A stretch of 64,000 nucleotides of DNA from an uncultured Gammaproteobacteria bacterium (GCA_964610305.1 CAZSVL010000005.1:14815-78814); one strand, 5' to 3'. Positions 763 through 53,454 are shown, counted from the stretch's first letter. Notes: generated by a model not told the origin, from the letters alone. Numbers and translations are program-made.

Positions 763-791
763 TTGACCACGCTACCTTCTTGTGATACTCT
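763..791 (+). promoter_or_regulatory. candidate sigma70-type promoter TTGACC-17-TACTCT with TG-extended -10
   Basis: Hexamers read directly at 763-768 and 786-791, about 35 nt upstream of the sigma factor start. Confidence 0.3.
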
Positions 792-825
792 CTGTAAGAA
801 TTAGCTAAACTTAGCGTCTTCTATT

Positions 826-1341
826 ATGAGCATGAGCTCTAGAGAACAACAATTCTCCGCGCTTTATGAAGAGCTTGCCGCAAAGGTGTATCGGCACGTT
901 CGTCTTAGGGTAGGATCTGAGCATGATGCTGAGGACATTGTGGCGCAGACGTTTATGAAGAGCTGGGATTACGTGAATAAAGGAAAGATAATCCTGAATA
1001 AAAAAGCGTTTGTTTTCCGTGTGGCGAATAATTTAATTATTGATTGGTATCGCGCTAAAAACAGCAGGCCGATCCCTATGGAAGATGTGGAGGAGGCAAA
1101 ACTGGGTGTTGCAGAAGAAAATTGGGATGAGATTTTAGATGCGCGCCATACATTAGAGCAAGTAGAAAAAGCGCTTGATGAGCTAGATCCATCGTACCGG
1201 GATGCTATTGTGCTTCAGTATATGGAGGGCTATAGTGTAAAAGATGTTGCAAAGAAATTACGTGTTTCAGAGAATGTGGTCTACGTGCGTGTTCATCGGG
1301 GAAGAAAAAAACTTTTGGAACTTTTGGCAGGAGCGATGTAA
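826..1341 (+). CDS. RNA polymerase ECF-type sigma-70 family sigma factor
   Basis: Region 2 (IIDWYRAKNSRP) and region 4 HTH (DAIVLQYMEGYSVKDVAKKLRVSENVVYVRVHRGRKKL) are typical of sigma-24 family. Size 171 aa. Confidence 0.75.
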   Translation: MSMSSREQQFSALYEELAAKVYRHVRLRVGSEHDAEDIVAQTFMKSWDYVNKGKIILNKKAFVFRVANNLIIDWYRAKNSRPIPMEDVEEAKLGVAEENWDEILDARHTLEQVEKALDELDPSYRDAIVLQYMEGYSVKDVAKKLRVSENVVYVRVHRGRKKLLELLAGAM

Positions 1342-1363
1342 GTATTTCATCTTGTCATTCTGA

Positions 1364-1419
1364 ATGAAGTGAAGAATCTAATACGTTCGTAGGGGATCCT
1401 TCGCTTCGCTCAGGATGAC
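1364..1419. repeat. degenerate palindromic element of the GTCAT...ATGAC family, between the sigma and anti-sigma genes
   Basis: Starts GTCATTCTGAA and ends CTCAGGATGAC. Same end motifs as the inverted repeats flanking the GIY-YIG genes. Confidence 0.4.
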
Positions 1420-1435
1420 GGCAAGAAATTAAATC

Positions 1436-2578
1436 ATGAAAAATCATTTTAAAAATTTAGAGAGCAAATACGAGTGGACGCAGGCTCAGCATGAGCGTGT
1501 GAGGAGTAAGCTGCTTGCTCACATGAAATCAACGGTTGCGGACAAACCAAGCCGCGCATCTTTTTCATGGATGAAATTAGCGCCGGCTACATTGGGCGCT
1601 ATGGTTTTTGTTTTGCTTGGTGGTGCTGGCGTAACGGTGGTAGTGGCAAAAGACAGCAGCTCTCATCATCGTCTGTATCCGGTGCGAGTAATGACAGAGA
1701 AAGTGCGCACTCAGCTTACATGGAATGATAGAAAAAAAGCGGCCCGTGCATCAGCCTATGCGGCAGAACGTTTAGATGAGCTTAATGATCTGGCGCAAGC
1801 TCAGGCAGCCGCGGCGGGAAGAGCAAAAAGGACGGTTGATATTGCGGCAGACAGACGTCTTGCCGGCTTTAAAAAAAGCGTTCTGGCAATTAATGACTTT
1901 GCCAATATTGCAAAAAAACAAATGGAAGCTCTGGCAAAGGAGGGTGATGAAGAGGCAGAGGCTTTAGTTGCAGAGTTAGACGCTGTTTTGGATGCAACGC
2001 TGGGTATTATGTATACCGTTGAGACCAGCTCTGAGCCGCATGAGCCTATGCGCAAAGTAATTTCTGTAACACGTCAGCAGATTAGTCCTTTGGAGAGCAA
2101 TGTAGAGATTATGCTCAATAGAGTGGTGGTAGAGAGATGGGAAGGGAGCTCTGTTAAGCAAGCGTCTGGAGAAAGTACGGATTACATTTCACAAAAAAAT
2201 AATGAGTCTCAGAATAAATCAGCTATACAGAAAGTTGTGCAAGCCAAAACAATGCTTAAAAGGGCGGCTGAGCGACTAGAGAAGGCAAGAAGAATATACG
2301 GATATGATGCTGTGCATAGCATGAAAGAGGGTTACCAGCGCGCAGAGAGGATTATTTCTGAGGCTGAGTCTTTGCTAGAAAACGGAAAACCAAGAGATGC
2401 GTATCATCGTGCGGATGAGGCCCTTAGGACGGCCGCGCATATAAGAACATACGCTCCCGTTATCTCGCCCAGAACAAAAGTAATTGTAGATGAATCTAAT
2501 CAACTGAGGTTACACGTGTTGCCGCAATATGAAGCAGATTTGGCTGCAACCAGCACGCAAGCAACAAGTGGAGAATAA
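1436..2578 (+). CDS. putative anti-sigma factor / single-pass membrane protein with coiled-coil periplasmic domain
   Basis: Sits immediately downstream of the ECF sigma factor on the same strand. One TM segment (LAPATLGAMVFVLLGGAGVTVVVA). No catalytic motifs. Confidence 0.4.
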   Translation: MKNHFKNLESKYEWTQAQHERVRSKLLAHMKSTVADKPSRASFSWMKLAPATLGAMVFVLLGGAGVTVVVAKDSSSHHRLYPVRVMTEKVRTQLTWNDRKKAARASAYAAERLDELNDLAQAQAAAAGRAKRTVDIAADRRLAGFKKSVLAINDFANIAKKQMEALAKEGDEEAEALVAELDAVLDATLGIMYTVETSSEPHEPMRKVISVTRQQISPLESNVEIMLNRVVVERWEGSSVKQASGESTDYISQKNNESQNKSAIQKVVQAKTMLKRAAERLEKARRIYGYDAVHSMKEGYQRAERIISEAESLLENGKPRDAYHRADEALRTAAHIRTYAPVISPRTKVIVDESNQLRLHVLPQYEADLAATSTQATSGE

Positions 2579-2580
2579 AA

Positions 2581-2656
2581 AACCGCCACTTTTCTGTGAG
2601 ATCCCGGATAAATTGCTGCGCAATTTTCCGGGATGACATGGAAGGGCGGTTTTTTG
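2581..2656 (+). terminator. long hairpin plus T-run, putative intrinsic terminator; contains an internal ATCCCGGA...TCCGGGATGAC palindrome
   Basis: CCGCC at 2583-2587 pairs with GGGCGG at 2644-2649 and is followed by TTTTTT. The internal palindrome belongs to the same repeat family. Confidence 0.4.
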
Positions 2657-2667
2657 GTTTAAGATAT

Positions 2668-3019
2668 GTCATTCTGAACTTGATTCAGAATCTCACAGAA
2701 GTATGTCAGGATATAAATCTCTCCACTCCCTATTGTCTCTAGAAATCAAGTCTTCTTTCCAGGGACGTTTCCAGGCTTTCAGTTGCTTTTCTCGTGTGAT
2801 GGCTGACTCCGCATTTTCGTGAATGTCGTAATACACTAGTTTGTTTACGTTGTATTGCTTAGTAAAGCTTTCCTTGGCTCCCTCTCTGTGTTGCCACATT
2901 CTCTTTTTCAAATTACTCGTTACCCCAATGTACAAAACCGTATTGGTCTGATTGGATAAGATGTAGACGTAGTACTGTTTGTGCATTGCTGTTAGATCCT
3001 GAATCAAGTTCAGGATGAC
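2668..3019 (-). mobile_element. GIY-YIG gene cassette bounded by 25-bp terminal inverted repeats (putative small mobile element)
   Basis: Left end GTCATTCTGAACTTGATTCAGAATC (2668-2692). Right end GATCCTGAATCAAGTTCAGGATGAC (2995-3019), whose reverse complement is GTCATCCTGAACTTGATTCAGGATC. Each end is itself an internal palindrome. Confidence 0.5.
2693..2986 (-). CDS. GIY-YIG nuclease family protein (about 98 aa)
   Basis: YVYILSNQTNTVLYIGVTSNLKKRMWQHREG is a GIY-YIG/URI motif. ATG at 2986 is the likely start. The ORF-track extension to 3007 uses a TTG inside the inverted repeat. Confidence 0.75.
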   Translation of the reverse strand: MHKQYYVYILSNQTNTVLYIGVTSNLKKRMWQHREGAKESFTKQYNVNKLVYYDIHENAESAITREKQLKAWKRPWKEDLISRDNREWRDLYPDILL

Positions 3020-3080
3020 GAAGGGGTGTTCAGGATGACGAAGGGGTGTTCAGGATGACGAAGGGGTGTTCAGGATGACG
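3011..3080. repeat. tandem repeat, 20-bp unit CAGGATGACGAAGGGGTGTT x 3.5
   Basis: Perfect copies are read directly. The unit begins with the outer end of the right inverted repeat (TTCAGGATGACG) and sits between the GIY-YIG start and the trpS stop. Confidence 0.85.
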
Positions 3081-3081
3081 T

Positions 3082-4119
3082 CTACAAACCAATTTTTTTC
3101 CTGGCTTTTATCATGCTCTTCTCTGCAATAAAATGAGCCTTTCTGTTTGCCAGCTTTGAGAGTACGTCTCTTTTCAGCAGACCTGCACGTTTTTTTCTGA
3201 AGTTGCCAAAGTAATCTGAAATTGAGCGTGCTGTTGTTTGTTTGAGGTCTTTGTAAGAGATGGATTGGCCAGTAAAGCGCATGTTGTCTTTTTCTGAGCC
3301 AAAGTATTCTAGTAGTTTCAGCAGGTTGTACGCTCCAGCTACTCCTTCATTTTTTCCGGCTCCTGGTTTGAGAATCCATTCCCCTTTCCATGCTACAGGG
3401 ATTTTTCCGGTGCTCTCTGTTTTGGCTTTCTTAATTTTTTCTGCAATTGTTTTTGGAGAGTCGCTTAGATTGATGACGTTTTTTTCGCCATGAGATTTAC
3501 TCATTTTTTTATGAGGAGCGGTAAGGCTCATAACACGTGGGGTAGGGGTAAGGATGGGTCTGGCCTCTGGAAAGGTCTTTCCGTATCTATTGTTAAACCA
3601 GCGCGCAATTTTTCTAGTGAGCTCTACGTGTTGTACTTGGTCTTCTCCAACAGGCACGTGCGTCCCGCCGTAGAGTAGAATATCGGCCGCCTGCAAAACA
3701 GGGTAACTAAAGAGTCCATTATTAATATTATTTTTTTGATCTAATGACTTATCTTTAAATTGAGTCATCCGTGAGAGCTCTGCAATGGGCGTAACGCAAT
3801 TAAACATCCAGCCCAGCTCTGTGTGTTGAGGCACGGCCGATTGCAAAAAGAAAACAGACTTGCGATTGTTAATGCCAAGAGCAAAAAGCTCTGCTGCCAT
3901 CATTTTTACATTTTTTTTGAGCTCCTTGCTTTCAGGCGCTTGCGTCAGCACGTGCAAATCAGCAATAAAAAAGAAGCACTCGTTTTTTGGATCATCTTGC
4001 AATTGCTTCCAGTAGCGCAGCGCACCTAAATAATTTCCGATGTGAAGCGGTCCGCTTGGCTGAATGCCAGATACAATAGTGTGTTTCATAGTAGTCTTAT
4101 TGTAATCCCATATAGACAT
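3082..4119 (-). CDS. trpS: tryptophan--tRNA ligase
   Basis: Class I HIGH motif (PSGPLHIGNYLGA) and KMSKS (HKKMSKSHG). Overall TrpRS-like layout. True start may be the internal MKHTIVSG. Confidence 0.85.
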   Translation of the reverse strand: MSIWDYNKTTMKHTIVSGIQPSGPLHIGNYLGALRYWKQLQDDPKNECFFFIADLHVLTQAPESKELKKNVKMMAAELFALGINNRKSVFFLQSAVPQHTELGWMFNCVTPIAELSRMTQFKDKSLDQKNNINNGLFSYPVLQAADILLYGGTHVPVGEDQVQHVELTRKIARWFNNRYGKTFPEARPILTPTPRVMSLTAPHKKMSKSHGEKNVINLSDSPKTIAEKIKKAKTESTGKIPVAWKGEWILKPGAGKNEGVAGAYNLLKLLEYFGSEKDNMRFTGQSISYKDLKQTTARSISDYFGNFRKKRAGLLKRDVLSKLANRKAHFIAEKSMIKARKKIGL

Positions 4120-4224
4120 TTATGCAAAAAAATGCTATGGTGGTGCTACCGCGTCGGCCGGATGCCGGCATGTTCTGGATTCATGTGTGTTTGCTGTAGC
4201 GCAAAACGCTGCAGATTATCATGC

Positions 4225-5262
4225 ATGGAAAAGGAGGAGAAATTGGCAGAGCCAACAAGAAAGCAGCTGATAGCGCTTATGCAATTGCGTTTTGCGCCAG
4301 AGAATAGATTGTCCATTGATAGATGGCTGGCATACATAGCTGGTGTTTGTGGTGGGTTGATTGAAAAAGATGGACTGCAGCGCATCCTGCAGGGCGATCA
4401 CCCCAAAATTCAGATAGACATGGAATCAGTGGGTTTGGTGCCCGACATGCGAAGGTTTCAATTTTTTTGGAATCCCGTAGTTAGCGTTGAGCCTAGCGGT
4501 AAGTATGCCAACCAAGAGATTCTCTGCAGCGCTACGTATCCAGAAAACTGGCGTATGCTTCCAGTGGCAAGGCAAGCCGAGCTTTTAAAGCAGTTTTTTG
4601 ATGAGCTTGATGTCTCGCAGGTGCAGAAGGTTGCACAGGGGATTATGGTTCCTGAGGGTTTTGACGGCCTGGCAGTAATTCCAAAATTTGCAGCTATCGC
4701 AGATTTAGCTCATGACTACACGTTTCCTCCATTCAATGTTGCAATGAAGCGCTTGATGAGAGTTTTTAGCCAAGAATTTGAGGGATTTAAGCGCGACGCT
4801 TTTGCATGGTCTCCGGGCACCGCTGGACTATATGAGCCTACGAGAGCTTTTTTGGAGGAGTTGGCTGAGAGCACGCCAGGCGATTGTCTGGTGATGCCGG
4901 TTCAAACCGGCATACTTCATAGAGGTAGAAGTGTGCAGAGAGCGAGGGTGTGCTACACAGACGATGAGTATGGATTAGACATGTTTTCTGTGGGATGCAT
5001 ATTGCTTACCCATCAGGGGCGCTTGGCAGCTGACGCGCTGCATATCATCTGTCCGGGATCATCCGTTCAAAATTCTCTTCAGAGCCGAGTTGATTGGTCG
5101 TGCAATGGTGTTTGGCAAAAATCATCTTTGGTTGAACTTGTGCGACGCTCGAATTATAAACCCGTGAAAAACAGTGGGTGTGCAACTGCGCATTATCCAT
5201 TTAAAACCGGCGAAACGCAGTCGAGCACTGTGGATGAGAGCGCAAAGCTGCTAGAATTCTAA
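4225..5262 (+). CDS. hypothetical protein; paralog of the edge gene 1..719
   Basis: ORF-track start at 4042 overlaps trpS, so the in-frame ATG at 4225 (MEKEEKLAE) was chosen. Shares EGFDGLAVIPK, TPGDCLVMPVQTG and C-terminal KLLEF with the first gene. Confidence 0.45.
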   Translation: MEKEEKLAEPTRKQLIALMQLRFAPENRLSIDRWLAYIAGVCGGLIEKDGLQRILQGDHPKIQIDMESVGLVPDMRRFQFFWNPVVSVEPSGKYANQEILCSATYPENWRMLPVARQAELLKQFFDELDVSQVQKVAQGIMVPEGFDGLAVIPKFAAIADLAHDYTFPPFNVAMKRLMRVFSQEFEGFKRDAFAWSPGTAGLYEPTRAFLEELAESTPGDCLVMPVQTGILHRGRSVQRARVCYTDDEYGLDMFSVGCILLTHQGRLAADALHIICPGSSVQNSLQSRVDWSCNGVWQKSSLVELVRRSNYKPVKNSGCATAHYPFKTGETQSSTVDESAKLLEF

Positions 5263-5306
5263 ACCAAAAATCCTGCACTTGTTGAGTACAGGATTTTTTT
5301 GTTGTG

Positions 5307-5652
5307 GTCATCCCGGACTTGATCCGGGATCCAGGGAATACGGATATAAGTCTCTCCATTGAGGATTATGCTCTTCTATCAGATCAAGCTTCCATTTGCG
5401 TTTCCAATTTTTGAGCTGTTTTTCACGCGCAATAGCTTGGCTAGCAGATTTATATTCCTCAAAATGAACCAATTTTGATACATTGTATTCTTTTGTAAAT
5501 CCTTCTGCTTCTTTCTTTTTGTGTTGCCATGTTCGTTTGAGTACGTCGTTGCTTACACCGATGTAAATCGTACCATTTCTTTTACTAGCTAATATGTAGA
5601 CGTAGTACGATTTTGCCATATACACTGGATCCTGAATCAAGTTCAGGATGAC
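5307..5652 (-). mobile_element. second GIY-YIG cassette bounded by 25-bp terminal inverted repeats
   Basis: Left end GTCATCCCGGACTTGATCCGGGATC (5307-5331). Right end GATCCTGAATCAAGTTCAGGATGAC (5628-5652), identical to the right end of the first cassette. Confidence 0.5.
5308..5619 (-). CDS. GIY-YIG nuclease family protein (about 103 aa)
   Basis: YVYILASKRNGTIYIGVSNDVLKRTWQHKKK motif. ATG at 5619 is the likely start (track start at 5640 is again a TTG in the repeat). The C-terminal LDPGSSPG residues and the stop codon are encoded by the left inverted repeat. Confidence 0.75.
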   Translation of the reverse strand: MAKSYYVYILASKRNGTIYIGVSNDVLKRTWQHKKKEAEGFTKEYNVSKLVHFEEYKSASQAIAREKQLKNWKRKWKLDLIEEHNPQWRDLYPYSLDPGSSPG

Positions 5653-5658
5653 GATGTA

Positions 5659-7485
5659 TTACACTTCTATCACCACCGGAAGCACCATCGGCCTCTTGCG
5701 CGTTTTTTTAAACAACATGCTGCCTACTTCGTCCCGGATTTTATTTTTGAGAATGTGAGGGTCTGTGCCCGCCTTTTTATCATGCGCTGTTGCTAGTTTT
5801 TTCACTGATCTTCTTAGGTTTTCTATGAGCTCTCTGTTTTCTTTGAGGTACACAAAGCCGCGGCTTATAATGTCTGGATTATGAATCAGCTTTCCAGATT
5901 TTGTATCAAGCGTGCAGATCACCACCACCATGCCTTCTTCTGCTAGCACTTGTCTGTCGCGCAATACAATTTGGCTTTCGTTTGATACGCCCAGGCCATC
6001 AACAAATACATAGTCTGTTACCACCTTTTTCTTGGTGAGCTCTCCGTTTCCTTTTTTATCAAACTCCATTATCTGGCCGTTGTCTGCCACATAGATGTGA
6101 TCCTTTGGCCAACCAAGACTCTCTGCCACGGATGCGTTTTCGCGTAGCAAAAAGTGATTTCCTTCAATAGGAATATAATATTTTGGCTGGAAAAGCGTAA
6201 TCATGAGTTTTAGATCTTCTTTTTTTCCATGACCGCCCGCGTGCACGTCCATCATAGAGTAGTGTATTACGCGCGCCTCTTTTCTGTAGAGCGTGTCCAT
6301 GAGTCTTTGCACAGAGCGCTCGTTTCCGGGAACCACAGAAGAAGAAAAGATTACCGTATCGGTCTTTCTAATTTTCACGCTGCGGTGATCGCCGTTTGCA
6401 ATACGCATAAGTGCCGCGCGGCTCTCGCCTTGCGCGCCGGTGCATACAATTACAATTTTATCATCATCGTAGTTATCAATTTTGTTGATAGGGATGATGG
6501 TGTCTTTTTTTATGGGCCTAATAAAGCCAAGTTCTCTGGCAATCTCTACGTTTGTTTTCATGCTGTAGCCTTCAAACGCAACTTTTTTGCCGTGGACTTC
6601 CGCCAGATCTACAATTTGTTTTACGCGCGATAGCAAAGACGCAAACGTTCCAATAATAAGTCTGCCCGGCGCTTTTTCTATGATCCTGTCCAGCGTCTCG
6701 CCAATTTCTTTTTCTGAAATCTGATGGCCGGGGCGGTTGGCGTTTGTAGAGTCTCCCATAAGCGCCAAAACACCCTCTGATCCCACCTTAGCAATTCTCT
6801 GCAGATCTGCTGGTGGTTCACCAACCGGGTGAAAATCAAATTTCCAGTCTCCGGTGTGGATTACTGTGCCGTTTGGTGTTTTTACTACAATGCCGGCAGA
6901 GTCTGGAATGTTATGGTTGATGTGAAAGAAGCTCACTTCAAAATGTCCCAACTTAAGAACGTCTGTAATTTTTGACACCTTTATTTTAAGCGGAGGAGTA
7001 TTAAAATCTGTCTGGCGTTTTTTAATGATGCCGGCAGATGTTGGCAGGGCATAAATAGTTGGGTTTCCAATGTTAGGAACGGTGTGGGGGATTGCGCCAA
7101 TGTGGTCATAGTGACCGTGCGTAATGATAACGCCACGGATATTTTTTTCTTTTCCTTTTAGATAGCTCATGTTTGGCACAATGTAATCTATGCCAGGCAT
7201 GTCTTCTTCTGGAAATTGAAGACCCATGTCTATGAGGATGATGTCATTTTTGTACTCCAAAAGAGTGCAGTTGCGTCCAACCTCTTCTAATCCGCCAAGC
7301 ACAATAACGCGTAGCTTGTCGCCGCTTGGTGGTGGGACGGCAGCGGGCGTCCGTCTCTGTGGAGCTCGCCTTTTGTTTTGTCCCTGTCTGTTGTGAGGGC
7401 GCCGCTTTTGATGCGATTTTGCGCCCGTGGTTTTTCCGGCTGGTCGTCTTTGTTGCTGACGCCGCGGAGATGATTTAGTTGTCAT
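5659..7485 (-). CDS. rnj: ribonuclease J (metallo-beta-lactamase/beta-CASP RNase)
   Basis: HxHxDH motif (VIITHGHYDHIGA) and RNase J-like domain order. About 55-aa basic N-terminal extension (PRRQQQRRPAGKTT...). Confidence 0.85.
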   Translation of the reverse strand: MTTKSSPRRQQQRRPAGKTTGAKSHQKRRPHNRQGQNKRRAPQRRTPAAVPPPSGDKLRVIVLGGLEEVGRNCTLLEYKNDIILIDMGLQFPEEDMPGIDYIVPNMSYLKGKEKNIRGVIITHGHYDHIGAIPHTVPNIGNPTIYALPTSAGIIKKRQTDFNTPPLKIKVSKITDVLKLGHFEVSFFHINHNIPDSAGIVVKTPNGTVIHTGDWKFDFHPVGEPPADLQRIAKVGSEGVLALMGDSTNANRPGHQISEKEIGETLDRIIEKAPGRLIIGTFASLLSRVKQIVDLAEVHGKKVAFEGYSMKTNVEIARELGFIRPIKKDTIIPINKIDNYDDDKIVIVCTGAQGESRAALMRIANGDHRSVKIRKTDTVIFSSSVVPGNERSVQRLMDTLYRKEARVIHYSMMDVHAGGHGKKEDLKLMITLFQPKYYIPIEGNHFLLRENASVAESLGWPKDHIYVADNGQIMEFDKKGNGELTKKKVVTDYVFVDGLGVSNESQIVLRDRQVLAEEGMVVVICTLDTKSGKLIHNPDIISRGFVYLKENRELIENLRRSVKKLATAHDKKAGTDPHILKNKIRDEVGSMLFKKTRKRPMVLPVVIEV

Positions 7486-7627
7486 ATTTGTTGCGCGATA
7501 AAATCGCGAAAGATATAAAGAAAGTTAAAGTTATTGATTATTAATTTTTAGACACCCACTAGTTTAGTTGGTGTTTTGTGTCGGGATCCTACCGCCTGCT
7601 ACGCGGCTCCAGGATGACGCTTGCGCG

Positions 7628-9562
7628 TCATTTTTTCCAGACCTGTTTGGTCTTGATATACCACTTTTCAATGGTGTTAAAACGATCAGACGGTGTCAGA
7701 ATTCTAGACACCTCTGCCCCCTTAACATTAGAAGAGCCGGCGTAGGTGTACGTTGGAGCGTACAAAAAGACGGCTGGGTATTGTTTTTGCAAAATTTCTT
7801 GAAAGGCTACATATTTAAGGCCGCGCACCGTATCGTCCGTGCTTTCTCTGGCTTGCTCTAGCAGACCATCGGCCGCGCGATTCACAAAGTTAGCCAAGTT
7901 AAGCCCAGGGTAATCTGTTTGAGAAGAGTGCCAGAAAGGAAACGGATCTGGGTCTGCGCCAATAATTTCTCCATAAAGCAGAACATCATATTGTCTTGGA
8001 CGCAAAACTTCTGCATTTACATCTCTTGGGTTTGCGGTGTGTATGCTTACTTGCACGCCCAACTCTTGCCACATGGTAGCCACTTCTTTTGCCACGGCAG
8101 CAAGTTCCTGATCATTTACGGTAGTTATGGTGATTTGCAGTGGCTCGCTATTTTTAGCGCGATAAATGGCCTGCGTCTCTGACATTTCTGAATCTATAAG
8201 TTGCTGAATTTGCTCAGCAAATGGGTCTTCCGGTTCCTGCTCTGGATTCTCTTCTCTAGTTTCTTCTGACTGCTCTTCTGTCTCTTCTGCCGCAGCAATA
8301 TCTTCTAACTCAGCTCTTATTTGTTTATCACGAAGCTCAGCATACTCTTGCGGAGAAATTTCTTTCCAGCCAGCTGCAGAGATAAGCTCTAGAGCCTTGT
8401 CATAATCTGAGCCGTTCTCATGAAAACGCTCTTCATATCCCAGAAAACCTTCTAAAATAGGGGAGTTAATTATAGCCCCTTGTCCGTCCAAAACGTCTGT
8501 TAAAATTTTCTTTTTATCTACAATAAGATCCAGTGCTTGTCTAAGGCGAACATCTGCAAGTGCCTTATGCTGTTTTGAGTTGAAAAACAGAGCGGTGTAT
8601 TGCGGTAGCTGCAGTTCTCGCAGCGCAATGTGTTTTCTCTCCAAGTCTGATTTAAATTTTTTGGGAACAAAATGCAGCCCTTCTACACGTTTGCTTCGCA
8701 AGTCTTGTACCGCAAGATCATACGTGGGATAAAAACTAAATTGAATACCGTCTAAATACGGCGCGCCGCGGTGAAATTTATCAAATCGTTCTAGGGCTAA
8801 ATGCTGCACAAGGCCAGCGTCTGTTCTGACCAGCTCAGTAAACATAAAGGGGCCGTTTCCAATAGGCTTGCTATTATAAGGAGAAAGACGCGCGTTTCGC
8901 GGTTCAATATTTGCCCAAATATGTTGCGGCACTATGCCGGCGGTTAAGCTGCCTAAAAACGGCGCAAATGGTTTTTCTAAAACAAATTGCACGGTGTTAT
9001 CTGTTGGTGCGGAAACCGTGACGCCCTGAAAACTCACACGCAGCGGGCTGGCGTAGGTTGGGTCTTGAATGCTTTGAAAAGTAAAGACTACGTCTTGGGC
9101 AGAAAGCGGCTCGCCGTCATGCCAAAAAAGGTTCTCTGCAATGGTAAACGTATACGTAGTTTTATCCGCAGAGACTTCATAACTGCTGGCAATGTCAGTG
9201 GCTAGGTTTCCTGCCTCATCGTATCGCAAAAGTCCTGAGAAAAGCAGACGCGCAATATCGGTATCAACTTCATTTGCGGCCGCGTAGAGCGGGTTTATAA
9301 ACTGCGGCGCTCCCACCACTGCCTCTCTATAGAGGCCTCCTTGCTTGGGCATTTTTTCAAAAAATCTTGTGCTGGCGCTAAAACCAAGGCCAACTATGCC
9401 TATTATAAGAACGGCAATAGTGCCCTGCAGCGCCCTTTTTTCTTTTACCGAAAGAAAACGTCCCACATACCGCAACTGAGAGAGCGACGGCCATTTTTTG
9501 GGAGTTTTAAGATGTTTTATTGTTTTTTGTAATCTAGCAAGGAAGTGACTAGTCCACTTCAT
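7628..9562 (-). CDS. ABC transporter substrate-binding protein, family 5 (OppA/DppA-like peptide/nickel binding)
   Basis: N-terminal TM/signal anchor. SBP_bac_5-like segment FWHDGEPLSAQDVVFTF. Contains an acidic low-complexity insert (EETEEQSEETREENPEQEPEDP). Confidence 0.7.
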   Translation of the reverse strand: MKWTSHFLARLQKTIKHLKTPKKWPSLSQLRYVGRFLSVKEKRALQGTIAVLIIGIVGLGFSASTRFFEKMPKQGGLYREAVVGAPQFINPLYAAANEVDTDIARLLFSGLLRYDEAGNLATDIASSYEVSADKTTYTFTIAENLFWHDGEPLSAQDVVFTFQSIQDPTYASPLRVSFQGVTVSAPTDNTVQFVLEKPFAPFLGSLTAGIVPQHIWANIEPRNARLSPYNSKPIGNGPFMFTELVRTDAGLVQHLALERFDKFHRGAPYLDGIQFSFYPTYDLAVQDLRSKRVEGLHFVPKKFKSDLERKHIALRELQLPQYTALFFNSKQHKALADVRLRQALDLIVDKKKILTDVLDGQGAIINSPILEGFLGYEERFHENGSDYDKALELISAAGWKEISPQEYAELRDKQIRAELEDIAAAEETEEQSEETREENPEQEPEDPFAEQIQQLIDSEMSETQAIYRAKNSEPLQITITTVNDQELAAVAKEVATMWQELGVQVSIHTANPRDVNAEVLRPRQYDVLLYGEIIGADPDPFPFWHSSQTDYPGLNLANFVNRAADGLLEQARESTDDTVRGLKYVAFQEILQKQYPAVFLYAPTYTYAGSSNVKGAEVSRILTPSDRFNTIEKWYIKTKQVWKK

Positions 9563-9592
9563 ATAGTTGCGGATTTTATGAAATCCGCTGAT

Positions 9593-9811
9593 TTAAACAA
9601 AGAGATTTGCCAGTGCCGTGGCAAAGAAAAGCAAGGAAAGAAGAATAGTAGCACGGTAGAGCATTTTGTCAACACCGCGCTTAGTTGAGTATACATTTGA
9701 AGATCCTCCAAACACACCAGAGAGGCCGGTGCCCTTCTGCTGTAATAAAATGACCGCAATAAGCGCAATGCTTACAACCACCTGTAGTCCTGTTAGAAAA
9801 GTTTGTGTCAT
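9593..9811 (-). CDS. secG: preprotein translocase subunit SecG
   Basis: 72 aa with two TM segments and the LLQQKGTGLSGVFGGSS signature typical of SecG. Confidence 0.75.
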   Translation of the reverse strand: MTQTFLTGLQVVVSIALIAVILLQQKGTGLSGVFGGSSNVYSTKRGVDKMLYRATILLSLLFFATALANLFV

Positions 9812-9899
9812 GAAGTATTCTAGTTCTTAGGAGAGTATAGCATGGTAGCGTGTTTGGGTCAAGGGTGTGGGGGTAGCGTTTAGGGTGTAGCCTCTTAGC

Positions 9900-9986
9900 G
9901 TCATCCGCAGCTTGATTCAGGATCCAGGTAGGAATATAAGACGTACTCTATTTCTGCCCTAGATTCTGAATCAAGTTCAGAATGAC
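9900..9986. mobile_element. miniature gene-less derivative of the GIY-YIG inverted-repeat element (two repeats about 37 bp apart)
   Basis: GTCATCCGCAGCTTGATTCAGGATC (9900-9924) and GATTCTGAATCAAGTTCAGAATGAC (9962-9986). The internal GGAATATAAGACGTACTC resembles the GGATATAAGTCTCTCC that follows the repeats in the gene-carrying copies. Confidence 0.5.
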
Positions 9987-10050
9987 AAGCTGGACTACAC
10001 ACACCCTATACCCTAACCGCTACACGCTGAGGATATGCTATAATAGGTGC

Positions 10051-10812
10051 ATGTCATTTTCGGCAACCGATGGAGCCAAAAAACCGTTTTGGAAAAAGCC
10101 GTGGGGAATAGTACTCTTGGTGGTAGCAGGCATTTTTTTGATAATGCTTATTCTTTTTTCTTTGCTCACACTCTCCTTTTATAACCGGCTTTTGGCAGGA
10201 GAAGATTTATCTGAATATGCAGGAAGGAGCAGCTTTACGCAATCAGAAGCGTACGACAGAGCAGTGGAGTCAGAAGTTGCTCTTGCAGAGGTGGGCAGCA
10301 CGGATGATCCAAGTCTTGGCAATGAAAGCGCGCCCATAGAGATAGTAGAGTTTTTAGATTTTGAATGTCCTTTTTGCGCGGCGGAGTTTCCTATAATAAG
10401 AGAGATAGCCACCAAAAATCCAGAGCTCATAAGATATGTTGTAAGAGATTTTCCGCTAGAAGATCAGCATCCCGGAGCCACGCTTGCATCTGAGGCAAGC
10501 GAGTGCGCACATGAGCAAAATAGGTATTGGGCATATCATGATAAACTTTTTCAAAATCAACAGCCTTTCAGCAGAGAGGTGCTCATAGATTTAGCAGGGC
10601 AGGTGGGATTGATGGTAGATGATTTTACGCAGTGCTTGGATGAAGAGCGATATAAAACAGAGGTAATGGAAGATTTGCAGGCCGGAATAGATGCAGGCGT
10701 AGTGGGAACACCAACATTTTTTGTAAACGGATTTAAATTGCAGGGAGTAATTCCAACGGAGGCATGGGAAGAAATAGTACAACTAGCCGCTTCATTGCAG
10801 GTTTCATTGTAG
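10051..10812 (+). CDS. DsbA-like thiol:disulfide oxidoreductase, membrane-anchored
   Basis: CPFC active site (EFLDFECPFCAAEFP) and thioredoxin fold. N-terminal TM segment. Start set at ATG 10051 because the track start at 9982 lies inside the repeat element. Confidence 0.7.
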   Translation: MSFSATDGAKKPFWKKPWGIVLLVVAGIFLIMLILFSLLTLSFYNRLLAGEDLSEYAGRSSFTQSEAYDRAVESEVALAEVGSTDDPSLGNESAPIEIVEFLDFECPFCAAEFPIIREIATKNPELIRYVVRDFPLEDQHPGATLASEASECAHEQNRYWAYHDKLFQNQQPFSREVLIDLAGQVGLMVDDFTQCLDEERYKTEVMEDLQAGIDAGVVGTPTFFVNGFKLQGVIPTEAWEEIVQLAASLQVSL

Positions 10813-12896
10813 GCGCACTCTTTTTTGGGTGGGGGTTTTTTGTATTAGATGCAATGCCCACGCAAGCGGTGGGAGTAGGGGCGCATACGCTTAAAGACAT
10901 CTACAACGCCGGAAAAGGAAAAAAGCCAGAGAAAAAAGGTCCCATTTGTACTGGCGCAAATGCCGGCACACCTATGTGTACTCCTCAGTGTTGGAAAAAA
11001 GAGGACTGTAATGCAGTAAAGGGAGCAACAGGCGCAGACAGCATTTGGGAGGGTAATAAGACTACAGAGGTAATCTGCGGCCCAAAGGAGGATGGCTGGG
11101 GATTTTGTTATCCTGCGCCGGCAGATATCGCTCTTCAGGTTCCCATTGGCAGTTTGACTACGGCAAGCAATGCGGTTCAGTACGTAAAAGCTGCATACGT
11201 CTTTCTTTTGGGTATAGCAGGATTGGTTGCGGTAATAGTATTTATGCACGCCGGATTTTTGTGGCTGACTGCTGGCGGCAATGCGGCAAATATAAGCAGA
11301 GCAAAAGAATATATCCAAAACGCCAGCCTGGGAATGCTGCTGGTTTTTGGTAGCTACACCTTTTTATCAGTTATTAATCCAGATTTAGTAAATCTTAAAG
11401 TACCACGCGCGTATTTGTTTAGAAACCAAGCCTTGGATCTTCAAACGGCAAAAAATATGGAAGGGCAGTTTTGCGATACACAGAACGATGCGCTGGCATG
11501 CAAAGCAAGTTGTCAGGGTTGCGCGTGTGTGGGAATTAGAGAGAGCGGCATGAGTGTGCTTGGAAAATATGTTGCATGGGGAAGTACCGCCCTGGCAAGT
11601 GCTGGTTTGCTTGGTGGTAGCGGGATTTCTGCTTTGGCGCGCGGTGGTTGGTGGATAACTAAGAAGATAGGCAGCTTTTTTAAACACACGCACAGAGTAG
11701 TAGGTGCAACACTGGGCCCAAAGGCAAATGTTTTGTTATTTTTGGGAGAGCTGGCGGCATTAAATAGTGGAAAAGAAGCTTTTGAAGAATGGCTGGGAGG
11801 GAATCATGGCTTGCCTTTTGGAGGTGACAGGTTGGGGTTGTGCATAGCGGATAAAAATAAAAATATACCCATTGGTGGTAAATGTGTAGATGTAATTAAT
11901 TGTAAGGCAGGAGGTGGCAGCAAAGAGCTCAAATGTTTTCAAACAGATTGGATACCAAATGTAGGCGGTTTTGGATTTAAGATAGGTATTTGCTCTGATG
12001 GATCAGAAGGTTCTGCATGCGCAAATAATAATGATTGTGATACGCCCCTTATGTCTTGTGTGGATGGTCCAGATAACAGCAAATGGTGCTCAAAAGGAAC
12101 TAGTAGAAGTCAGGGAAGTCCATGCAATACAAACAATTGCCAAGACGATGCGTGTAGAAGATCGGCGCAGTGTGCGTCTGGATTGAGGTGTGCAATTGTA
12201 GAGGAGAACTGGTCTTCTTCTCTTCCTTTTGCTGATACTAACGGACACGGCTGGTGTGTTGATGGTTCCGGACCTACCGGTGCCGGAGGTTTGGCGGCGT
12301 GCACAGCAGATGGGGATTGCGACAAAACGGCAGGTGGACAACAGTTAAAATGTCTTGATGGGACTCTTGGTGGTGCACAGGGCAGTAAATCAAAAATCTG
12401 CACTTCTTTATGTGATAGTGATAAAAAATGTCAGGATATATGTCCGGAAGGAAAGACCTGTGTCTGTAGAGAAAATTCTGAGAAACGAAAAGTTTGTATG
12501 GCTCCATCAGCAAAGGTCGGGCAAGGAGAGCAGTGTGATACTAATGCATGTGAGGGCGATCTAAAGTGTACAAAATATAAAACTGATCTTGGGCGCGTAT
12601 GTACTAAAGGCGGATTAAATGATGTATGTACCATACAGAAAGAGTGTGGAGAAGGGTTATTGTGCGGCTTTAAGAGTGCTGAACAGACTGTCTGTATGGT
12701 AAAGGCGCCATTGCTGGTTCCATGTGAAAGTACCGATGAGTGCGTAGCTGTATACGGGGCAGAGTCACCTGCATTTTGTACGGAAGGAAGGATTGGACAG
12801 GTGAAAGTTTGCACACTCGGTTCCATAGGTGCGGTTTGCGCGTCTGACAATGATTGTAATGAAGGATCCTGTAAATACAATAAATGCAGCGAGTAG
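10764..12896 (+). CDS. large secreted/membrane cysteine-rich protein with a TrbC/VirB2-like pilin hairpin
   Basis: Signal or TM segment at the N-terminus. Two-TM hairpin [67 protein letters not shown] resembles T4SS pilin-like proteins. About 450 aa of Cys-rich repeats follow (C-x-DC-x-C periodicity). Exact start uncertain. Confidence 0.5.
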
Positions 12897-12941
12897 CCCA
12901 TACACTTGCAGCGTTTGAGAAACTGTGGTATGCTAACGCGC

Positions 12942-15785
12942 ATGCCAACGGTAAAATCTTCTTCAAAGCAGCCTTTTGATAAAATTTCTATAGTTGGAGC
13001 GCGTGAGCATAACCTCAAAAACGTCTCCATAGAGCTGCCAAAAAACAAGCTTGTAGTGATTACTGGCCTTTCTGGTTCCGGTAAATCTTCTCTTGCTTTT
13101 GATACCATTTATGCAGAGGGTCAGCGCAGATACGCTGAGTCTCTTTCTTCTTATGCGCGGCAATATATGGAGCTGCGAGACAAGCCAGATGTAGATGAGA
13201 TTACCGGCCTCTCCCCAACGGTGGCCATAGACCAGCGCGCCATGAGCAACAACCCGCGCTCTACGGTGGGAACCACCACAGAAGTATATGATTTGCTCCG
13301 TTTACTTTTTTCTAGAATTGGGCAACAGCATTGTCCGTATTGTGATGAGCCGGTAAAAGCGCACAGCGCAGGGCAAATAGTAGAAGAGATCAGAAAAATG
13401 GCCAGAACAGAGGCAGATATTTATCTTTTGGCGCCTCTTTTTGAAGATGTAAAAATGAAACCAAAAGAGTTGCTTCAGCGGCTAGAGAGAACTGGCTATG
13501 ATACCGTCCGTGCCAACGGCCTGCTTATGCCACTGAAAAATTTTGCAAAACACGCAAAGGCAGATACACCTTATACGGTGGAGTTGGTTATCCGCCACAT
13601 TACAGATATAAAAAGACAAAAACTCATGCAGCCGGTAGAGCAGGCGCTAGAATATGGAAACGGAAGGCTGCTAGTTTTAGATGAAGATACGGGAGATGAG
13701 CATGTGTTCTCAACCCTAGCGCGCTGCGGATCATGCGCCAGATCTTTTGATCCGGTTGAGCCCCGCAGTTTTTCATTTAACAGCCCTTATGGCGCTTGTC
13801 CGCGATGTACGGGACTAGGCATCACCCTAGAGGTTGATCCAGAATTGGCTATTCCCAACCCAAGGCTTACGCTGGCAGAAGGAGCCATTCAACCATGGAC
13901 AAGAATTACCGGCAGCAATGATAAATATCATAAACTACTAGAGGCCGTAGCGCGGGACGAGGGATTCTCTGTTCACACGCCAATACAAGACATGCGTCAG
14001 CGCGCTCTGGATTTGGTTATGTACGGAACAGACGGACGCATGCATGATGTAGAAGGAAAACAAACCGTATATGAAGGAGTAATACCAAACTTAACGCAGC
14101 GCCACGCCAGCACGGATTCTGATTATGTGAGAAAAGAAATAGAGCAGTACATGAGAGAAAAGCAGTGCCAGACGTGTAATGGGCAGCGATTAAAACAAGA
14201 AGCGCTCAGCGTTAAAGTGTGGGATTATTCTATTGCAGACATTGTGCAAATGAGCATAAATGAAGTAGTGGTATTTTTTGAGCAAAAACAAAAAAAGACT
14301 GGGCTAGAGAGCAAATTTGAAGAGATTGCTCAGCCTATTTTTAAAGAAGTGCTGACAAGAACGCGGGATCTGGCGCAAGTGGGACTAGGCTATATTCAAA
14401 TGGACAGATCCGTTGCTACGCTCTCTGGCGGAGAAGCGCAGCGCGTGCGGCTTTCTACGCAACTATCTACTGGATTAACCGGCGTTATCTATATTTTAGA
14501 TGAGCCAAGTATTGGTCTTCATCCAACGGATAATCTTAAATTAATAGATACGCTCAAGCAACTGCGGGATCTGGGTAACACGGTTATTGTGGTAGAGCAT
14601 GATCAGGAAATGATGGAGCATGCGGAGTATTTAGTAGATGTGGGGCCGGGCGCCGGAAAACATGGCGGAGAAATTATTGCGCAGGGAACCGTGGAGCAGG
14701 TTAAAAAGTTAGAAACGTCTACGGCTAGACATTTGGCTGGAAAAGATAAAATTGAGGTTCCAAAAAAATATAGGAAGACTAACAAGAAAAAAGTTATTAC
14801 GATTGAAGGCGCAACCGAAAATAATCTTCGCAACATTACGGTTGATATTCCGCTTGGTACGCTGTGCTGCATTACCGGAGTATCAGGTTCTGGAAAATCT
14901 ACCTTGGTTATAGATATTTTGGGCAAAGCGCTCTCAAAGCATTTTCACAGAGCAAAAGCAGAGCCCGGAGCTCATAAAAAATTAAAGGGTCTAAAAAATG
15001 TAGATAAAGTTATCGCCATAGACCAAAGCCCTATTGGAAGAACGCCACGATCCAACCCTGCAACATACACGGGCGTATTTACGGCTATCCGCGATGTGTT
15101 TACCAATGTGCCAGAGGCTAGAGCGCGCGGTTATGATGCCGGAAAGTTTTCTTTCAATGTAAAAGGTGGCGGACGTTGTGAGGCCTGCGCTGGAGAAGGA
15201 TATGTGCGAATCCCGATGCAATTTTTGTCTGATGTTTTTGTGGAATGTGAGGCGTGCGAGGGAAAACGCTATAACAAAGAAGCTTTGGATATTCACTACA
15301 GAAACAAGACTATTGCGGATGTTTTGAACATGACGGTAGAAGAGGCGCGTAATTTTTTTTCTGACACGCCAGCTATTGTAGACAAGTTGAAACTATTAGA
15401 GGATGTTGGTTTGGGGTATGTGCAACTTGGCCAGCCTGCAACCACGCTCTCTGGAGGAGAGGCGCAGCGTGTAAAATTAGCAACAGAGCTTTCCAGAAGA
15501 GCAACCGGAAAAACACTTTATATTTTGGACGAGCCAACAACCGGACTCCACTTTGATGATATAAAAAGATTACTCCACGTGCTTAACGCACTGGTAGATA
15601 AAGGAAACACGGTGCTCATAATTGAACACAACCTAGACGTAATAAAAGGAGCAGACTGGGTCATAGACATGGGTCCAGAGGGTGGAAGAAAAGGCGGAGA
15701 AGTAGTGGCGCAAGGAACACCAAAGGACGTAATAAAAATAAAAGAAAGCGTAACCGGATCATTTCTAAAACCACTACTAAAATAA
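12942..15785 (+). CDS. uvrA: excinuclease ABC subunit A
   Basis: GAREHNLKN, two ABC modules ([28 protein letters not shown] and [11 protein letters not shown]), two LSGGEAQR signatures, and zinc-finger CxxC pairs. Track start at 12906; ATG 12942 preferred. Confidence 0.9.
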
Positions 15786-20813: not shown

Positions 20814-21080
20814 ATGGCTTGCGTCTACATTTTAAGATCAGAAAGTGGAAGGTATTATGTGGGCAGTGCGATTGATGTTGATTCTCGTTTGAGACACCAT
20901 AAGGGCGGATTTACTCATTCAACTGCTCGCATGGGTAAGTTGGAGGTTGTGTTAGTGCAGCAGTATGAGACTCTGAAAGAAGCACGTTTCGTTGAAAGAA
21001 GGATAAAGAGAATGAAAAGGAAAGATTACATTGATAAGATGGTGGCCGACGGAAAAATCAAAATTAAGATGCGTGAGTAG
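20814..21080 (+). CDS. GIY-YIG nuclease family protein (about 88 aa), whose stop codon overlaps the tRNA 5' end
   Basis: VYILRSESGRYYVGSAIDVDSRLRHHKGG is a GIY-YIG motif. Track start at 20742 overlaps the pseudouridine synthase gene; ATG 20814 preferred. Final codons ATG CGT GAG TAG are the first 10 nt of the tRNA. Confidence 0.65.
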   Translation: MACVYILRSESGRYYVGSAIDVDSRLRHHKGGFTHSTARMGKLEVVLVQQYETLKEARFVERRIKRMKRKDYIDKMVADGKIKIKMRE

Positions 21081-21143
21081 CTCAACCGGCAGAGCGCGAA
21101 GCTTATACCTTCGTGGTTCCAGGTTCAAGTCCTGGCTCACGCA
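21071..21143 (+). tRNA. tRNA, anticodon UAU (Ile, AUA-decoding), 73 nt, no encoded CCA
   Basis: Manual cloverleaf: 7-bp acceptor stem GCGTGAG/CTCACGC, D-stem GCTC/GAGC, anticodon stem CGAAG/CTTCG with loop C-U-UAU-A-C, T-arm CCAGG-TTCAAGT-CCTGG, and 5-nt variable loop. All stems are Watson-Crick. Confidence 0.7.
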
Positions 21144-21195
21144 CGAGTAGCCCCGACGCCCGAAGGGGTCGGGGGGCCGACTGAAACGTCGGCCC

Positions 21196-21258
21196 TCAAC
21201 CGGCAGAGCGCGAAGCTTATACCTTCGTGGTTCCAGGTTCAAGTCCTGGCTCACGCAC
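21196..21258 (+). repeat. 63-bp perfect direct repeat of the tRNA 3' portion (D-loop to discriminator); partial pseudo-tRNA
   Basis: Identical to 21081-21143. It lacks the 5' acceptor strand and a D-stem partner. The 52-bp spacer holds two small GC hairpins. Confidence 0.8.
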
Positions 21259-50783: not shown

Positions 50784-50834
50784 GTCATCGCGAGGAAGCC
50801 TGCCCCGGACTTGATCCGGGGTGGCGATCCCGCC
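50784..50834. repeat. palindromic element GTCATCGCGAG...CCCCGGACTTGATCCGGGG...GCGATCCCGCC plus T-run (same family as the GIY-YIG inverted repeats)
   Basis: Contains the CCGGACTTGATCCGG palindrome seen at 5311-5327. Its ends match the in-gene copy at 53609-53647. Confidence 0.4.
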
Positions 50835-50881
50835 TTTTTTGACGAGATTGCTTCGCCTGCAGCTCGCAATGACCAAAAAAT

Positions 50882-53271: not shown

Positions 53272-53454
53272 ATGAAAAAACATACACTACATACGCTTGC
53301 CGGCTTTACGTTTTTAGTAGCTGCCGCACTTCATTTATCACGGTTTGTGACAAAAGCAGATTTAGCGTATGGCAGCTACGTTATTCCACTGTGGTTTTCT
53401 GTTGTGGTAGGACTCTGGGCGGCCTTTCTAAGTTACAAGAGCTTTAAAAGTTAA
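53272..53454 (+). CDS. hypothetical small membrane protein (60 aa)
   Basis: Two hydrophobic segments. May be spurious. Confidence 0.25.
   Translation: MKKHTLHTLAGFTFLVAAALHLSRFVTKADLAYGSYVIPLWFSVVVGLWAAFLSYKSFKS

Follow-up and report, generated by a model that had tools for sequence, protein, structure and literature searches.

Two small GIY-YIG genes bracketed by inverted hairpin repeats: probable Ssn-family nucleases and their hairpin sites in a genome assigned to Patescibacteria

Are small nuclease genes that lie between inverted hairpin repeats mobile cassettes, or resident genes beside their own recognition sites? The question is raised by a stretch of 64,000 nucleotides from an uncultured bacterium (GCA_964610305.1, CAZSVL010000005.1:14815-78814; 'the window' below means this whole 64-kb stretch), in which positions 2668-5652 hold two GIY-YIG genes, g1 and g2, each flanked on both sides by copies of a 25-nt palindrome. 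A sequence-only reading of this DNA had taken them for candidate minimal mobile elements, either homing-endonuclease-like or insertion sequence (IS)-like. We conclude that g1 and g2 probably encode nucleases of the Ssn family and that the palindromes around them are probably the hairpin sites of these enzymes (SRMs, CGTC-tagged REPs, that is, repetitive extragenic palindromes); judged from homology and repeat anatomy, this reading has a probability of roughly 0.85. The nuclease-hairpin system was published in 2025 (Chenal et al., Nat Commun 2025, PMC11893778), and therefore the locus is not the discovery of a new kind; it is a Patescibacteria member of that system with an A+T-richer hairpin. 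It bears on a question left by that study, whether hairpin-ssn-hairpin units and solo hairpins are mobile. The genome data for the window lineage comprised these 64 kb. From the names of homologues of its tryptophanyl-tRNA synthetase (TrpRS), the genome was judged to belong to Patescibacteria (candidate phyla radiation, CPR), near Uhrbacteria and Magasanikbacteria. The TrpRS open reading frame (ORF) has an exact database record in its 335-aa form, starting at the second ATG, and none in its 345-aa form.

The two cassettes are composed as follows.

2668-2692, plus strand: hairpin repeat (SRM / CGTC-REP type) GTCATTCTGAACTTGATTCAGAATC, on the 3' side of g1, GTCAT head outward; 100% identical in the cassette of the sister genome L129
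2693-2986, minus strand: g1, probable Ssn-family single-domain GIY-YIG nuclease, 97 aa from the ATG at 2986
2995-3019, minus strand: hairpin repeat GTCATCCTGAACTTGATTCAGGATC (minus-strand reading), 8 nt upstream of the g1 start codon
3020-3079, minus strand: 20-nt unit in three tandem copies, each made up (GTCAT strand) of a truncated head GTCATCCTGAAC and the 8-nt flank ACCCCTTC
5307-5331, plus strand: hairpin repeat GTCATCCCGGACTTGATCCGGGATC, on the 3' side of g2, encoding its last 8 residues and stop
5308-5619, minus strand: g2, probable Ssn-family GIY-YIG nuclease, 103 aa from the ATG at 5619
5628-5652, minus strand: hairpin repeat with the sequence of 2995-3019, lying between the RNase J stop (6 nt away) and the g2 start (8 nt away)

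The proteins of about 98 and 103 aa that had been predicted here proved to be 97 and 103 aa long from ATG. Both matched PF01541 (g1, E 4.7e-19, residues 4-78 of 97; g2, E 7.5e-17, residues 5-78 of 103), and their only other Pfam match was the related T5orf172 family, so that both are single-domain proteins of <150 aa. Against a Neisseria gonorrhoeae homologue of SsnA, the founding enzyme described below, each showed 57% identity (g1 over 93 aa, E 7e-37; g2 over 86 aa, E 1e-36). With this homologue as reference, both lie inside the bounds that PMC11893778 sets for the family by blastp to Neisseria SsnA (E < 1e-10, coverage at least 75%). The gonococcal protein carries Y6, Y17 and E64, the residues mutated in PMC11893778, and its gene has NTS copies on both sides; Y8, Y19 and E66 of g1 and of g2 align with these three residues. 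The two proteins share 56% identity. The best non-self match of g1 was at 80%, to the gene at the same site in L129, and that of g2 at 74%, its best database matches (64-74% identity) bearing names from several phyla. Matches of g1 to UPF0213 structures were weak (PDB 1zg2, E 0.004; 1ywl, E 0.17). The genes lie directly downstream of the housekeeping genes trpS (g1) and rnj (g2) and on the same strand as these; inspection by eye revealed no promoter belonging to them, though no promoter scan was made.

The bracketing by inverted, hairpin-forming repeats is as the sequence-only reading described it. Exact copies of the 25-mer GATCCTGAATCAAGTTCAGGATGAC stand at 2995-3019 and 5628-5652, making the two right-hand repeats identical, and its reverse complement, with 2 mismatches, at 2668-2692; no match is expected by chance (100 shuffles). 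As single-stranded DNA (ssDNA) each flanking repeat folds into an 8-bp stem with a 5-nt loop (-5.6 to -9.6 kcal/mol), and the GTCAT heads point outward. In gene direction both cassettes have the same order: GTCAT-hairpin-ATC, 8 nt, ATG to stop, GAT-hairpin-ATGAC. Each repeat consists of a Y-GTC head, an 8-bp stem opening with AT, a 5-nt loop, a C and a CAG/CAC-like tail, and hairpins of this SRM anatomy stand within 10 nt of all four gene ends. The TTG extensions of both ORFs begin within the upstream repeat, and the last 8 codons and stop of g2 (LDPGSSPG*) come from the downstream one, in agreement with what had been noted of the coding content of the repeats. Judged from protein sequence alone, many g2 homologues also have N- or C-terminal tails of repeat-encoded look (LDSGSSPE, SGFPGQARE, MCHPRLDRGS). 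The tandem units beside cassette 1 belong to an array found by TRF at 3008-3080 (period 20, 3.7 copies, 100% match), which repeats the outer half of the right-hand repeat of that cassette. A scan at Rfam gathering thresholds found tRNA alone and no RNA family at the repeats.

These features parallel a characterised system. SsnA of Neisseria meningitidis is a 94-aa single-domain GIY-YIG protein (CDD cd10448) that binds the hairpin NTS, CGTCATTCCCGCGMAVGCGGGAATCYRG, as ssDNA alone and on one strand alone, and cuts a few nt upstream of it; binding depends critically on the C that follows the palindrome, and cutting on the three bases ahead of it (PMC11893778). SsnA homologues of many phyla are flanked by SRMs (71% by at least one, 42% on both sides), and cutting of the enzyme's own site was demonstrated for four enzymes (PMC11893778). 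In Neisseria the sole demonstrated cellular role is the cutting of incoming ssDNA in natural transformation, with a transformation phenotype in N. meningitidis; the NTS-ssnA-NTS unit was likened to an insertion sequence and its mobility left as a hypothesis (PMC11893778). The hairpins also fall within the class of CGTC-tagged REPs (Di Nocera et al., BMC Genomics 2013, PMC3733652), whose members have a stem of 8-9 bp that opens with AT, a loop of 4-5 nt and a short tail. This class takes in Neisseria dRS3 and Rickettsia RPE-4 and RPE-6, includes dimers and copies inside genes, and was concluded to be without a dedicated transposase (PMC3733652).

Like the published system, the window has single-domain GIY-YIG proteins of ~94-103 aa with the Y/Y/E catalytic residues, inverted repeats on both sides of each gene, further copies dispersed but clustered near the genes, and a repeat plan (YGTC, AT-stem, loop, stem-AT, C, YAG-like tail) parallel to that of NTS. 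The stems, however, are CCTGAA or CCCGG with the loop CTTGA, compared to TTCCCGC and the loop GMAV in Neisseria, and the host is of a Patescibacteria (CPR) lineage. The likeness to CGTC-tagged REPs extends to the CGTC-2 description (CGTC/TGTC tag, 8-bp AT-stem, 5-nt loop, short unpaired tail), to frequent dimers and to copies inside genes; unlike that class as described in PMC3733652, without a dedicated enzyme, the window repeats bracket a nuclease gene, as in Chenal 2025.

Some points weigh against the assignment to the Ssn/SRM system. A member of the family would have SRM repeats no farther than 500 bp from the gene on each side, but the published SRM pattern, HGTCWYN(0-2)YYVSBRHN(0-5)WNVSBRGN(0-2)RNCYNB (PMC11893778), gave 0 matches over the window, because the CCTGAA stems, richer in A+T, conflict with two of its positions (V/S) and a G stands before the 5307 copy; we therefore replaced it by a structural pattern (GTCATY, 5-nt closing complementarity, ATC). 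Moreover, our SsnA reference was the 94-aa N. gonorrhoeae homologue (L133, positions 616-900), standing in for N. meningitidis CAX49033.1. The source record of this homologue, NZ_CP119140.1, is a 2.17-Mb N. gonorrhoeae chromosome filed as a plasmid. Genome surveys that use the published pattern probably under-count A+T-richer variants, as it misses the window hairpins.

Two other families were compared. As in REP/REPIN-RAYT and IS200/IS605 systems, a small nuclease gene is bracketed by hairpin repeats that, by analogy for g1 and g2, it would recognise in ssDNA, and as with REPs and REPINs there are solos, inverted doublets that fold into long structures, and many repeats for one or two gene copies. 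The enzymes differ: RAYT (TnpA-REP, Y1 HUH) has an HUH tyrosine with a covalent intermediate and an unrelated fold, whereas GIY-YIG enzymes are hydrolytic. The tag is GTC and not GTAG, and the predicted cuts fall on opposite strands, unlike those of IS200/IS605. RAYT-driven REPs were rejected on the GTC tag and on the lack of a RayT homologue in the window (no significant match to E. coli RayT by tblastn or phmmer). UPF0213 / YhbQ proteins share the single-domain GIY-YIG plan of ~90-100 aa; g1 and g2 match them weakly, and UPF0213 genes are not hairpin-flanked. A third GIY-YIG gene, g3 (20814-21080), is of this type: it gave no alignment to SsnA, its nearest relatives are UPF0213 proteins (E 1e-4), and no flanking repeat of the g1/g2 type was found at it, as had been reported.

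The end of g3 falls in the 5' acceptor arm of a tRNA-Ile(UAU) gene (21071-21144). Of that tRNA, 64 nt, without the 5' arm, recur at 21194-21257 just ahead of a terminator; this partial repeat could be an integration or duplication scar.

The structural pattern gave 14 matches in the window, ~12 of which we judged real, compared to 0.43 expected from shuffles, and 10 of the 14 lie within the first 10 kb, around g1 and g2. The copies away from the two cassettes, with their state in the sister genomes L121 and L129, are as follows.

1354-1378 (plus) and 1395-1419 (minus): gene-less inverted dimer inside an apparent window-specific insertion of ~91 bp (1342-1432), between a sigma-factor gene and the ORF starting at 1436
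2600-2637, minus strand: solo long-loop hairpin in the terminator loop of ORF 1436-2578; absent from L121 and L129
7585-7618, minus strand: solo hairpin between the RNase J gene and an SBP_bac_5 gene; absent from L121
9900-9924 (degenerate) and 9962-9986 (intact): gene-less dimer inside an apparent 174-bp window-specific insertion (9859-10032)
50784-50829 (plus, GTCATCGCGAGG...) and 50846-50873 (minus, GTCATTGCGAGC...): dimer of a second type, upstream of ORF 50882
53609-53642, plus strand: in-frame hairpin within 53454-54188, a pseudouridine synthase gene, at the stretch that links its S4 and PseudoU_synth_2 domains

The dimer at 1354-1419 folds as one long hairpin (z -3.4) and so does the insertion 9859-10032 (z -5.1); the folds of 1342-1432 and 9859-10032 are long imperfect hairpins that reach past the GTCAT heads, as in REPINs. 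The solo copy at 2600-2637 carries the tail TCACAGAA, with which g1 also ends (last codons and stop). In the dimer at 9900-9986 there is possibly a remnant of a GIY-YIG 3' end. The second hairpin type at 50784-50873 is that which flanks the GIY-YIG genes of two more distant loci, L124 and L127. One arm of this dimer nests a CCCCGGACTTGATCCGGGG hairpin, and the window has no ssn gene of the matching subfamily. Copies here are found in frame inside genes, unlike NTS, of which 2% are inside genes in N. meningitidis. The in-frame hairpins in protein genes (53609-53642 of the window and 8725-8761 of L124) resemble Rickettsia palindromic elements (RPEs).

Beyond the window, we collected 8-kb loci from species-representative genomes with the exact 25-mer pattern GTCATYCYGRACTTGATYCRGRATC. 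It occurs in at least 120 loci, from Sphingomonadaceae, Dehalococcoidia, Bacteroidota, Patescibacteria, Spirochaetes, Elusimicrobia and others. Among the matches listed, 117 of 120 loci have no GIY-YIG gene within 150 bp; a g1/g2-like gene is present in 4 of the 8-kb loci and lies within 150 bp in 3 of them. One of these, L107, has the exact window cassette architecture and stands just after a terminator. The sequence-only reading had named, as the finding that would speak against mobile cassettes, an abundance of such palindromes as generic REP-like elements unrelated to GIY-YIG genes. The abundance of solo REP-like copies was found; they are not unrelated to the genes, however, having the anatomy of the recognition sites of the nuclease family (PMC11893778). 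A gene with inverted hairpins under the same orientation rule was observed in the window, L129, L107, L124 and L127. A tblastn search of 50,697 phage records gave no match, and matches in plasmid collections were large replicons, mislabelled chromosomes among them.

Among the cross-phylum copies listed, GTCAT is preceded by T or C in 129 of 135, and CAT, CAG, TCA and CAC account for most of the tails. A duplicated truncated head, consisting of GTCAT and the first arm of the stem, accompanies 10 of these 135 copies (<1 expected); the full repeat invariably has it on its GTCAT side, often at a spacing of 8 nt. Such duplications are present in the window (3020-3079, three times), in L129 (~940-960, at the other cassette end), in L121 (~11005-11025) and in L101, L055, L073 and others.

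The sister genomes allow gains and losses to be followed. L121, whose TrpRS is 87% identical, is colinear with window 783-14021, and the pairwise identities of the TrpRS C-terminus among the window, L121 and L129 are 84.6%, 85.6% and 81.5%, with L129 about equidistant. Empty sites in relatives, which the sequence-only reading proposed to look for, were observed. L121 is without cassette 2 and without trace of it (10 nt where the window has 359), and also lacks the dimer 1354-1419, the copies 2600-2637 and 7585-7618 and the dimer 9900-9986. In L129 the 1342-1432 site and the terminator loop are both free of hairpins. Since the sigma-factor gene adjoins or overlaps its neighbour, the next gene, in five relatives (L121, L124, L125, L127, L129), the 91-bp dimer 1342-1432 is best taken as an insertion in the window lineage. 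Absent from relatives, cassette 2 and the four solo or dimer hairpins would be insertions or lineage-specific survivors. No target-site duplication, which had been suggested beside the GTCAT ends, was found at either window cassette or at the L129 and L107 flanks.

At site 1, L121 has a single hairpin, GTCAT-TCTGAA-CTTGA-TTCAGG-ATGAC, followed by two copies of AAGGATGAC. One arm comes from each of two non-identical flanking repeats, leaving a T.G mismatch, and a G replaces the C after the palindrome. We consider this fused hairpin best read as an excision scar, from a deletion between the 8-nt direct repeats TTCAGRAT common to both palindromes, for which no nuclease would be needed. The chimeric arms speak for a deletion product, and so does the rarity of double-headed GTCAT...ATGAC hairpins (6, compared to 398 single-headed, in 1.8 Mb). 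Four of these six are one conserved sequence in the related L127, L128, L134 and L135, where it apparently lies in the RNase J gene or at its start. A double-headed hairpin as a common target was rejected on the same rarity.

L129, on the other hand, has cassette 1 at the same site as the window, with a protein 80% identical and both hairpins 100% identical. Between g1 and this ortholog, the proportion of nonsynonymous differences (pN) is 0.096 and that of synonymous differences (pS) 0.74 (saturated), and the neighbouring TrpRS gave 0.091 and 0.76. We conclude from these comparisons that cassette 1 is old, vertically inherited and under strong purifying selection, and that its hairpins are conserved far past neutral expectation. 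Site 1 is empty in more distant relatives, whose TrpRS is 60-62% identical.

The spacer between rnj and trpS has a history of its own. L124, L127 and L128 carry a 94-aa GIY-YIG gene just after rnj; its identity to g2 is 44%, and the hairpins on either side of it are of another type (GTCATTGCGAGG...GAAGCAATCCCG). Orthology of g2 with the L124/L127 gene was rejected on this hairpin type and on the 44% identity, compared to 64-74% for g2 to proteins of other phyla. An ssn gene follows rnj in 2 of 65 metagenomic RNase J loci with enough downstream sequence, both of the L127 lineage, and in most others trpS follows directly. As the genes belong to different Ssn subfamilies and the spacer is mostly empty, it was occupied at least twice. 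In L124 a hairpin lies in frame within trpS (8725-8761), adding the 10 residues IGHSGVPRSG. Syntenic loci that have an ssn gene contain 4.8 hairpins per 10 kb; those that lack one contain 0.53, and 55 of these 79 ssn-less loci have zero hairpins. These genome comparisons show that cassettes and hairpins turn over between relatives.

Some neighbouring features of this region were also recorded. The ORF 4201-5262, between the cassettes, encodes a paralogue of the protein at 36-719 (44% identity over 142 aa; neither with a Pfam match); L121 has a 349-aa gene at the matching position, and most relatives, with trpS directly after rnj, lack it. In L121 an extra 133-aa ORF without Pfam match lies at 9504-9905, and the distance from trpS to the hypothetical gene is ~570 bp compared to 42 bp in the window.

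How the enzyme would act can be proposed from the Neisseria and Wolbachia enzymes. A repeat would fold into a stem-loop once the DNA is single-stranded, and the nuclease would bind only the strand reading GTCAT-stem-loop-stem-ATC, with the C after the palindrome serving binding and the GTC before it serving cutting. By analogy, it would hydrolyse that strand a few nt 5' of GTCAT and leave double-stranded DNA (dsDNA) and RNA intact. Given the inverted orientation of the flanking pair, cuts are predicted on opposite strands, immediately beyond either end of the cassette. Cassette 1 would have been lost once, in L121, by recombination between its two palindromes.

What, then, accounts for the layout? 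That the palindromes are generic REP- or terminator-like hairpins, beside GIY-YIG genes by coincidence, is the least probable account and is already refuted by the association statistics. Most copies elsewhere are solo (117 of 120 among the matches listed, as above) and several in the window stand just after terminators, but the hairpins have no T-runs, and at ~2 per 10 kb chance would rarely place a repeat <10 nt from four gene ends in a fixed orientation. In addition, the layout recurs in other phyla, the presence of an ssn gene goes with a ~9-fold higher hairpin density at syntenic loci, and the association has been published genome-wide (PMC11893778). Hardly more credible are free-standing homing endonuclease genes, whose nuclease would cut the empty allele, repair from the filled allele then copying the gene. 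GIY-YIG is the classic homing-endonuclease fold (TIGR01453 matches weakly, 18-19 bits against a 56-bit cutoff), and empty and filled alleles do occur among relatives. Against this, g1 and g2 are single-domain proteins without a DNA-binding module, no intron, intein or phage match was found, and characterised family members leave dsDNA uncut (PMC11893778). Moreover, the empty site 2 of L121 is without any hairpin, and in its fused site 1 a G takes the place of the C that follows the palindrome, on which binding depends most. The homing-endonuclease likeness drawn by the sequence-only reading was therefore given up.

Two accounts remain to be weighed, both below even odds. A domesticated host function, in which Ssn cuts incoming or exposed ssDNA at hairpins to control recombination while the hairpins spread by ordinary recombination and slippage, is a serious possibility. 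It is in keeping with the transformation phenotype in N. meningitidis (PMC11893778), with the strong purifying selection on g1 and the perfect conservation of both hairpins between the window and L129, and with the position of the genes directly downstream of trpS and rnj, on the same strand (the lack of a promoter of their own being a by-eye impression, as said above). It leaves unexplained, however, the de novo hairpin dimers between genes that abut or overlap in relatives, the in-frame copies inside essential genes and the exact 25-mer pattern in many phyla. These are what an autonomous transposon would account for, with the GIY-YIG protein as transposase and the solos and dimers as derivatives, like REPINs or miniature inverted-repeat transposable elements (MITEs), mobilised in trans via ssDNA; this extends the Ssn/SRM reading and we regard it as tentative. 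In its favour are the architecture resembling terminal inverted repeats (TIRs), the outgroup-polarised window-specific insertions (1342-1432, with five relatives; 2600-2637; 7585-7618; 9859-10032), the at least two Ssn subfamilies in an rnj-trpS spacer empty in most relatives, and the REPIN-like folding of dimers into long hairpins. The in-frame insertions inside trpS of L124 and the pseudouridine synthase gene, the same 25-mer pattern across phyla, the truncated-head duplications recurring on the cleavage side, and the last codons and stop of a g1-like gene in the solo 2600-2637 also favour it, and CGTC REPs have no known transposase (PMC3733652) and the window no RAYT homologue. On the other side, target-site duplications were not found, no near-identical copies occur in the 64-kb window or the databases, and cassette 1 has stayed at one site through synonymous saturation, evolving as slowly as TrpRS. 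GIY-YIG proteins are hydrolytic nucleases with no known strand-transfer step, the predicted cuts on opposite strands are unlike those of IS200/IS605, and slippage between 8-nt direct repeats, with no nuclease required, explains the L121 loss. There were no phage matches, and those in plasmid collections were to large replicons, some of them mislabelled chromosomes. Of the self-contained cassettes first proposed, the recurrent unit of a gene with inverted hairpins (L129, L107, L124/L127) and its presence/absence polymorphism stand; the IS hallmarks do not, for want of target-site duplications and near-identical copies and with cassette 1 long at one site. The mobile-element reading is thus partly supported.

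On the preferred reading of g1 and g2 as Ssn nucleases with their hairpin sites, the comparisons yield outgroup-polarised insertions, a chimeric excision scar and a selected cassette with perfectly conserved hairpins. Together they suggest a long-lived, selected nuclease whose sites still proliferate. It is possible, though we consider it doubtful, that Ssn is the long-missing mobilising enzyme of the CGTC-tagged REP/RPE hairpins, and so recently active in this Patescibacteria lineage that insertions can be caught between overlapping genes and, in frame, within essential ones; the hairpin-ssn-hairpin unit would then be autonomous, the dimers REPIN-like riders, and the truncated heads ~8 nt from GTCAT footprints of cutting and repair. 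If the nuclease does drive the spread, this would account for the propagation of CGTC REPs and Rickettsia-type palindromic elements, into coding sequences too, and a GIY-YIG enzyme would join the short list of mobility systems based on ssDNA hairpins. With the A+T-richer hairpins, the range of candidate enzyme/site pairs on which ssDNA tools could be based also grows.

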